From the sequence record NC_011045.1: DNA of 38,841 nt. One strand, written 5' to 3'. The DNA comes from Escherichia phage 13a. The position numbers and the translations under genes were made by a program. This document shows, piece after piece, positions 6,743 through 7,481 of this stretch (position 1 is the first letter of the stretch; the number at the start of each line of letters is the position of its first letter). The notes under the pieces are model-generated. The model did not search any database, was not told where the DNA came from, and was given only the letters and a program-made list of their open reading frames with translations.

Positions 6743-7281
6743 TGGGATGCATAGCGTGCTTAGAGAAAGACGACCGTTATCCACATACCTGTAATAAAGG
6801 AGCTAACGATATGACCGAACGTGAACAAGAGATGATCATTAAGTTGATAGACAATAACGAAGGTCGCCCAGATGATTTGAATGGCTGCGGACTTCTCTGC
6901 TCTAATGTCCCTTGTCACCTCTGCCCCGCAAATAATGATCAAAAGATAACCTTAGGTGAAATCCGAGCGATGGACCCACGTAAGCCCAAACTGGAGAAAC
7001 CTGAGGTAACTCCTACAGACGACCAGCCTTCCGCTGAGTCAATCGAAGGTGTCACTAATCCTTCCCATTACATGCTGTTTGACGACATTGAGGCTATCGA
7101 AGTGATTGCCCGTTCAATGACTCGTGAGCAGTTCAAAGGGTACTGCTTTGGTAACATCCTTAAGTACCGCCTACGCGCTGGTAAGAAGTCCGAACTGGCT
7201 TACTTAGAGAAAGACATGGCGAAAGCTGGGTTCTACGGTGAACTGTACGAGAAACATAAGGACAAGTGCTATGACGCTTAA
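6742..7281 (+). CDS. 1.7: gp1.7 nucleotide kinase-like (179 aa)
   Basis: ATG with aaggaggtg SD; T7 gp1.7 homolog by position and sequence. Confidence 0.85.
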   Translation: MGCIACLEKDDRYPHTCNKGANDMTEREQEMIIKLIDNNEGRPDDLNGCGLLCSNVPCHLCPANNDQKITLGEIRAMDPRKPKLEKPEVTPTDDQPSAESIEGVTNPSHYMLFDDIEAIEVIARSMTREQFKGYCFGNILKYRLRAGKKSELAYLEKDMAKAGFYGELYEKHKDKCYDA

Positions 7282-7361
7282 CGATGTTCTGTACTTCGGA
7301 TTAATCTGCGCTGGAGTTGGAGCGTTACTTCGCTTAATGTATTGGGCCATAGAGGTGGAAT

Positions 7362-7481
7362 ATGGAAAAGCCAAGTGAATGGTGCCACAAGATGTGGACT
7401 GAATGTATAGAACGTGGTGATGAGGAATCTGCTGGTCACTACATGGAACTTTACAACCAATGGCTATCGAGAGGTTACTGA
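7362..7481 (+). CDS. Small hypothetical protein (39 aa), gene 1.8-like position
   Basis: ATG 7362 with gaggtgg SD; ends 2 nt before gene 2; a second small ORF 7271..7378 overlaps in another frame. Confidence 0.3.

Follow-up and report, generated by a model that had tools for sequence, protein, structure and literature searches.

Does the DNA that separates gene 1.7 from gene 2 in Escherichia phage 13a hold two genes, or one gene that has come apart? In phage T7 this interval is occupied by a single 48-codon gene 1.8 (V01146, 8749-8895), whereas in phage 13a (sequence record NC_011045.1; the whole stretch analysed, 38,841 nucleotides (nt) long, is called the window here) it displays two small open reading frames (ORFs), named ORF A and ORF B below. 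They overlap by 17 nt and lie in different frames, that of ORF B being +1 relative to ORF A. A sequence-only reading of this DNA had described the pair, had given the T7 gene correctly, and had left the choice between a frameshift, either pseudogenising or programmed, and two genuine micro-genes. The latter part of that interpretation was upheld and the former was not: the two ORFs very probably are independent micro-genes, separately translated, which constitute an ordinary variant arrangement and no frameshifted T7 gene 1.8. This answer is based on the anatomy of the locus, homology, per-frame purifying selection and predicted folds, and it turns on the following elements.

7258..7262, + strand: Shine-Dalgarno-like AAGGA of ORF A, within the coding sequence of gene 1.7, with the ATG 8 nt downstream
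7271..7378, + strand: ORF A, gene for a hydrophobic micro-protein of 35 amino acids (aa) (phrog_29660), predicted single membrane helix; ATG at 7271, TGA at 7376-7378
7352..7357, + strand: strong Shine-Dalgarno sequence GAGGTG of ORF B, within ORF A codons I-E-V-E, 4 nt before the ORF B ATG
7362..7481, + strand: ORF B, 39-aa homologue of gene 1.8 (phrog_1312; DUF8272 by precomputed label), predicted two-helix hairpin; ATG at 7362, TGA at 7479-7481
7362..7378, + strand: overlap of ORF A and ORF B, 17 nt, ATGGAAAAGCCAAGTGA; site of the 1-nt deletions through which A and B have become one ORF in two uncultured relatives

The extents of both ORFs and the strong Shine-Dalgarno sequence of the second one agreed with the earlier description. 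That description had also envisaged that neither ORF might correspond to T7 gp1.8; alignment revealed that ORF B does. Residues 5-38 of ORF B aligned with residues 21-47 of T7 gp1.8, with 15 identities over 34 positions and one 7-residue gap (BLASTP, E 2e-8). ORF B matched phrog_1312 over residues 1-39 (E 9.5e-21), and residues 16-48 of T7 gp1.8 matched the same profile (E 6e-15). Its location downstream of gene 1.7 and immediately upstream of gene 2 is the one expected for the gp1.8 family. By homology and synteny, ORF B is a homologue of T7 gene 1.8. Its short, ATG-initiated form is normal, as indicated by the gp1.8 of K1F, which is a short form of only 33 aa (MVKPSEWCREMY..., i.e. MVKPSEWC...), and by a 39-aa protein of phage EG1 identical to ORF B. 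Proteins 95-100% identical to ORF B bear the precomputed Pfam label PF26839 (DUF8272); the local Pfam-A copy, which did not include the PF26839 model, gave no match. Among ten Teseptimavirus-type sequences, the ratio between non-synonymous and synonymous differences (pN/pS) over the core was 0.10 in the frame of ORF B, against 1.69 and 1.07 in the other two.

The ORF B family was found in 645 phage records (tblastn), including those of Klebsiella podophages, T1-like siphophages and Pectobacterium and Erwinia phages, with unrelated gene neighbourhoods. When 1.8 billion cluster representatives were searched exhaustively with HMMER, 14 clusters were recovered, which displayed the signature PS(E/Q)WC...ERGD...A..Y..(L/M)(Y/F)..W.SRG. 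DUF8272-like ORFs were also encountered in unannotated gaps of distant podophages, namely after the Rz-like spanin genes of Era103 (locus L035, 1501-1605) and just upstream of the RNA polymerase gene of Drulisvirus SU552A (locus L034, 1501-1608), so that the core is a mobile small gene untied from the 1.7-2 neighbourhood. Two family members were of unusual build. In protein P0007 (63 aa) the gp1.8 core seemed to be partially duplicated in tandem, and P0019 (83 aa) displayed the core at its start, followed by a frame shift and read-through into gene 2; the latter is probably a frameshifted or mis-assembled variant.

The model of ORF B (AlphaFold2, 16-sequence alignment) was a two-helix hairpin composed of residues 4-18 and 21-36, with a mean predicted local distance difference test (pLDDT) score of 96. 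A sequence search of the PDB with ORF B returned only a designed protein devoid of a qualifying stretch, and a Foldseek comparison of the model with the PDB returned only non-significant hairpins, generic or similar to the tetratricopeptide repeat (TPR) (E 3-10). The model did superpose on one TPR-like unit of the MamA repeats and of the peptide-binding domain of collagen prolyl 4-hydroxylase, with query-normalised template modelling scores (TM-scores) of 0.77-0.85. Any helical hairpin of 35 residues would fit in this way, so that the likeness is one of shape and no evidence of family; membership of ORF B in the TPR family was rejected, Pfam giving no match and all Foldseek E values being at least 3. 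NCBIfam and PADLOC scans of both peptides yielded nothing meaningful, the sole NCBIfam match being one for the A-B fusion, at 12 bits against a cut-off of 567.

Only ORF B, then, is related to the T7 product. No similarity of ORF A to any part of T7 gp1.8 was detected, and the pair can hardly be a T7-like single gene 1.8 broken by a frameshift, as had been suggested. ORF A matched a profile of its own, phrog_29660, over full length (profile positions 1-35 of 35, E 1.9e-28), and was found in 71 phage records (tblastn). Its frame was open in every homologue read, in three genera: Teseptimavirus (EG1, 04922B, WW2), Berlinvirus (285P, BP12A, S523, SPLA4, CarlSpitteler, PYps49T, CECAV_058, PhiV-1) and Kayfunavirus (K1F, SH3, PRF-SP4, Pipis, KM02). 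The ATG at 7271 was present in all relatives compared, and the AAGG(A) element was kept in all homologous loci printed. A longer, 46-aa version of ORF A starting from GTG 7238, which served as query for protein homologues, was rejected because this upstream start is not conserved, several relatives having no in-frame ATG there; the added codons merely read the C-terminal part of gene 1.7 in an alternative frame.

Selection on ORF A was assessed in the 72 nt that precede the ribosome-binding site of ORF B, with pairwise pN/pS summed. Third codon positions varied most (21 of the 24, against 11 first and 10 second positions), and pN/pS was 0.21 in the frame of ORF A compared to 0.79 and 1.40 in the other sense frames. 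One antisense frame over ORF A also gave a low value (0.34), which is expected because wobble positions coincide. The antisense ORFs 7204-7374 and 7278-7460 were rejected as they displayed stop codons in several relatives, and no gene could be placed on the - strand of the ORF A region. The pattern of substitutions by codon position is thus specific to the proper frame of each ORF, and the arrangement exceeds what chance would give, which speaks in favour of two genuine micro-genes as one of the options first put forward.

These figures bear on the view that only ORF B is a gene and that ORF A is an untranslated spacer, conserved for the ribosome-binding site of ORF B or for some other RNA or DNA signal. 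ORF A is indeed unannotated by many (e.g. in K1F, BP12A, PRF-SP4, Pipis, KM02 and 04922B), it is dispensable in several natural relatives, and its 3' end is constrained by the signals of ORF B. A spacer would nevertheless not account for the third-position variation and the low pN/pS over these 72 nt, nor for a frame that was never interrupted although homologues differ at up to 27-30 of the 72 nucleotides. The start codon and AAGG(A) of ORF A are conserved, a hydrophobic helix and a G-x-G motif persist through amino-acid replacements, and the RNA of the region does not fold significantly (see below). A mere spacer is therefore very unlikely.

ORF A is accordingly regarded as a real gene for a single-helix peptide, and its hydropathy makes insertion into a membrane most likely. 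The 19-residue Kyte-Doolittle maximum was 1.81 here, 2.58 in 285P and 2.40 in Pipis; a single-pass membrane micro-protein is expected to have a hydrophobic stretch of ~19-22 residues, and the hydrophobic character of ORF A was kept across homologues. Residues L3, N4, D5, G15, G17, L22, W25, I27, E28 and V29 were invariant. In the fused relative P0004, described below, the part corresponding to ORF A was modelled as one continuous helix (residues 3-31, AlphaFold). An alignment by MAFFT of proteins of all three kinds (ORF A-only, ORF B-only and fused) placed 11 residues of the ORF A C-terminus (7340-7372) against 11 residues of ORF B helix 1 (7389-7420), of which only W, E and G were identical, probably by chance. 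This alignment, in which WAIEVEYG was wrongly set against WTECIERG, was not used.

The split itself recurred throughout. With a 69-aa fused relative as query (tblastn), each of the 62 phage records with a coverage of at least 80% for both parts gave a match in two pieces and two frames; these records came from many laboratories and three genera, and the split junction was also present in six IMG/VR contigs. The recurrence in the 62 records indicates that the interval was not missequenced in this genome, an error that the sequence-only reading had considered. The stop of ORF A varies by lineage: TGA goes with an overlap of 17 nt, in the 285P group TAG goes with one of 14 nt, and in Pipis and KM02 a TAA is placed one base before the ATG of ORF B (overlap of -1 nt). 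The ATG of ORF B is by contrast fixed throughout, and its GAGGTG motif was invariant in the 17 homologous loci printed, as GAGGTGG in 15 of them and GAGGTGT in Pipis and KM02. A shifting stop next to a fixed start indicates independent termination and initiation and no conserved recoding site; the differing stop positions argue against sequencing error, pseudogenisation and a conserved programmed frameshift alike.

Two assemblies did contain a single ORF in this place, differing by one nucleotide. Protein P0004 is a 69-aa fusion on a 39.5-kb Logan contig of SRR8427752, reported on 3-4 contigs, and P0003 is a 61-aa fusion in OP072290.1, a 39.8-kb uncultured-phage genome. According to DNA alignment, both were caused by single-base deletions directly after the ATGG of ORF B: the Teseptimavirus-like genome has lost one A (GGAAAAGCC to GGAAAGCC) and the Berlinvirus-like genome the T (GGTAAAACC to GGAAAACC), and both deletions yield ...EVEYGK-PSEW.... 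Neighbouring genes were intact on both contigs. Different deletions in different lineages imply two independent events and fusions that are derived, not ancestral. No fused junction occurred in cultured phages, among the 62 split records, and exact-pattern scans of IMG/VR and JGI metagenomes for it returned none.

The fusions, together with the single gene that T7 has in this interval, might be taken to favour the view that the split reflects an artefact, or that a frameshift has recently pseudogenised one longer 1.8, either T7-like or a fused transmembrane-1.8 gene, which would leave one ORF non-functional. This is extremely unlikely: all 62 records are split, both frames are under purifying selection, the stop of ORF A occupies three positions across lineages while the start of ORF B is kept, the fusions arose from the split form through different deletions (of A in GGAAAAGCC, of T in GGTAAAACC), and ORF A is unrelated to the N-terminus of the T7 protein.

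A programmed +1 frameshift in the overlap would join ORF A to ORF B in another way, giving a membrane-anchored gp1.8 of 69 residues instead of, or alongside, the separate peptides. The Lys tRNA would slip from AAA (7367-7369) to AAG within GGA-AAA-G (7364-7370). ORF B does lie in the appropriate frame, the overlap offers GGAAAAG (or GGTAAAACC in relatives) on which this tRNA could re-pair one base on, and the predicted ...EVEYGK-PSEWC... is the very protein of the natural variants P0004 and P0003, so that a fusion is at least tolerated. The surroundings of the site are nevertheless ill-suited. The zero-frame codon following AAA is GCC here and ACC in relatives, both common sense codons in E. 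coli, whereas known +1 sites have a stop or a rare codon. GAGGTG(G) ends at 7357/7358 and AAA starts at 7367, a spacing of ~9 nt, compared to 3 nt between the Shine-Dalgarno sequence and the +1 site of prfB. The RNA fold of 7310-7400, considered for sequestration of the ORF B site or stimulation of a frameshift, was not significant (z = -1.3). ORF B has an ATG to itself, behind a strong Shine-Dalgarno sequence that stays fixed; in Pipis and KM02, where the TAA of ORF A precedes that ATG, a shift is impossible; and relatives that have lost ORF A by deletion produce the 1.8 core by itself. The programmed frameshift that had been proposed is thus extremely unlikely, and equally hard to credit is a single membrane-associated module in which the parts are made separately and a low-level +1 slip adds a fusion of P0004/P0003 design.

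With two separately translated genes as the preferred reading, expression could proceed as follows. Genes 1.7, ORF A, 1.8 (ORF B) and 2 form a tightly packed series, with probable translational coupling of the four, and would be transcribed rightward by the phage RNA polymerase into a polycistronic mRNA. ORF A would start at the ATG overlapping the end of gene 1.7, start position and AAGGA being as for T7 gene 1.8, and would give a single hydrophobic helix of 35 residues, most likely residing in the inner membrane. ORF B would start behind its own GAGGTG, inside the 3' end of ORF A, and would give a soluble two-helix hairpin, the gp1.8 core of ~30-35 residues. The slot between gene 1.7 and the 'PSEWC' core is variable and is occupied in relatives by ORF A, by nothing (after a clean 88-nt deletion) or by other short extensions.

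We infer that both peptides are made, that ORF A is inserted in the membrane, and that A and B act together. By the gene-fusion ('Rosetta stone') argument, the fusions hint that the two products cooperate; these two 1-nt-deletion fusions of uncultured phages are the mildly new element here and may hint at joint action at the membrane. A joint membrane-associated role of both peptides is the best guess available, although a doubtful one, and ORF A can only tentatively be proposed as a membrane partner or anchor of gp1.8 that operates without frameshifting.

Both genes are accessory, as many relatives have lost ORF A by deletion and gene 1.8 of T7 is reported to be non-essential. The latter is considered non-essential in PMC9825161 and PMC2680503, neither giving a function; its deletion was not recovered in one genome-reduction screen (PMC9825161), and substitutions that appeared in it during experimental evolution had an apparently small effect (PMC2680503). 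Literature searches on gene 1.8 or gp1.8 returned only statements of non-essentiality and unknown function, and a literature search on phage 13a returned nothing relevant.

Several points weigh against two functional genes with linked products. Ribosome profiling or proteomics showing either peptide was not found in the literature. ORF A can be dispensed with in nature, being absent from many close relatives; its hydrophobic stretch includes an Arg, and its hydropathy of 1.81 is only modestly above the usual threshold for membrane helices. Its last 5-9 codons are constrained by the Shine-Dalgarno sequence and start of ORF B, which makes their conservation uninformative for ORF A. The fusions were seen in two uncultured-phage assemblies and nowhere else searched, so that an assembly error is possible, and a functional link between A and B is drawn from adjacency and from these two assembly-derived proteins.

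The flanking genes are the following.

6742..7281, + strand: gene 1.7, nucleotide kinase with a DUF3310 domain, 179-aa ORF; phrog_2585, E 4e-87; PF11753, E 2e-21
7483..7677, + strand: gene 2, host RNA polymerase inhibitor; phrog_1307, E 2e-31; PF16857, E 2e-27

The ATG of ORF A lies inside the final 11 nt of gene 1.7, and that of gene 2 stands 1 nt past the stop of ORF B (TGAtATG), so that the junctions along the series 1.7-ORF A-1.8-2 are, in order, overlaps of 11 nt and 17 nt and a spacer of 1 nt. An 87-aa ORF starting with GTG at 7414-7677 is an over-extension of gene 2, as in the annotation of 04922B. The phage itself is T7-like, genus Teseptimavirus, with ~91-92% identity to several isolates over the first 12 kb. 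Ten T7-type promoters were found on the + strand by a search allowing up to 3 mismatches, none of them between 5215 and a promoter-like sequence at 7676. This sequence, TAATACGACTCACTATTAGGGAAGA at 7676-7700, directly follows gene 2, which is the position of the phi2.5 promoter of T7 (T7 9107); it was missed by the search, apparently owing to an extra base. Between 6300 and 7800, sigma-70 promoters and terminators did not exceed shuffled expectation.

Current annotations treat this locus unequally. ORF A and ORF B are identical to a phage 13a 'unknown product' (ACF15895.1 / YP_002003945.1) and to its gp1.8 (ACF15896.1 / YP_002003946.1), respectively, and homologues of both are annotated in CarlSpitteler, PYps49T and CECAV_058. 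This existing two-gene annotation, together with the representation of the families in PHROGs and Pfam, indicates an ordinary and already known variant of the T7 gene map. The annotation of K1F (NC_007636) does not include the ORF A homologue MLNDVLYFGLICAGVGALLRLMYWEIEVEYGKTK (locus L002, 961-1065; ~8160-8264 of the record), which lies between genes 1.75 and 1.8 and overlaps both. ORF A is likewise unannotated in BP12A, PRF-SP4, Pipis, KM02 and 04922B, several of which are also devoid of a gp1.8 annotation. In 04922B (locus L003, 791-1048), gene 2 was called from an out-of-place upstream start as an 85-aa product that swallows part of gene 1.8, and in WW2 (locus L015, 692-811) the gp1.8 homologue was mislabelled 'host cell RNA polymerase inhibitor'.

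Beyond such annotation hygiene, the significance is slight. The textbook 48-codon gene 1.8 of T7 is not the general form, the conserved unit being a two-helix core (DUF8272) spread over several hundred phage records; in T7-like phages an exchangeable slot precedes it. About 70 phage records fill the slot with a separate gene for a 35-residue hydrophobic peptide, which many GenBank annotations miss (e.g. the K1F reference). Studies of gp1.8 function or of small phage membrane peptides should treat the locus as two genes.

How this arrangement compares with those of relatives is best appreciated from the slot between gene 1.7 and the core. In the DNA alignment with T7, homology covered the end of gene 1.7 up to and including the ATG, gave way to an unalignable stretch, and set in again at the SEWC codons; the start site and the core are hence shared, and the filler of 20 hydrophilic residues differs. 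In PDP351P2 (ATGACGCTTAA|GCCAAGTGAATGG, product MTLKPSEWC...) a clean 88-nt deletion has removed ORF A, the first three codons of which are retained from an ancestor resembling the phage studied here. The slot reads MILKPSEWC in 3A_8767, MMHGETVYYKPSEWC in CQ615 and MPTTHYLKPSEWC in phage C2, and protein P0010 combines a T7-like extension with a core like that of ORF B. On the strength of these alignments, what is conserved as a unit is the core; between it and gene 1.7 lies a hot spot of recombination and of insertion and deletion, and the 48-residue gp1.8 of T7 represents one N-terminal variant of this core among several.

Compared with the present locus, T7 gene 1.8 likewise follows gene 1.7 and precedes gene 2, it begins with a codon that overlaps gene 1.7 behind the same AAGGA, and the C-terminal 28 residues of its product are homologous to ORF B and belong to phrog_1312. 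It differs in being a single ORF, the first 20 residues of which (MHNFKSTPPADSLSDDFTSC) are hydrophilic and unrelated to ORF A. Its core does not have the 7 residues of ORF B that form an IERGDEE-type loop, and is translated from the start overlapping gene 1.7, whereas the core has its own internal start here. The fused relatives P0004 and P0003 share the two modules, their order and their genomic context with the present locus; their genomes can produce the 1.8 core solely as part of a protein that also contains the hydrophobic helix, in contrast to the separate modules of phage 13a.

An identical arrangement of two genes was displayed by the pairs of K1F and of Berlinviruses (e.g. CarlSpitteler bas68_0019/0020), in which a hydrophobic ORF A homologue of 33-34 aa and a short gp1.8 share either 17 nt or 14 nt and the GAGGTGGAATATGG junction is retained. 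In contrast to phage 13a, their gp1.8 core is short (T7-like) and their ORF A has no extra Thr codon. K1F further differs in carrying an additional gene 1.75 between gene 1.7 and ORF A (locus L002, 741-968). The end of this gene, ...CGCTATGCTTAA, is a repeat of the TATGCTTAA junction found at the end of gene 1.7 in relatives belonging to Berlinvirus and Kayfunavirus, which suggests that gene 1.75 was inserted by recombination at that junction.

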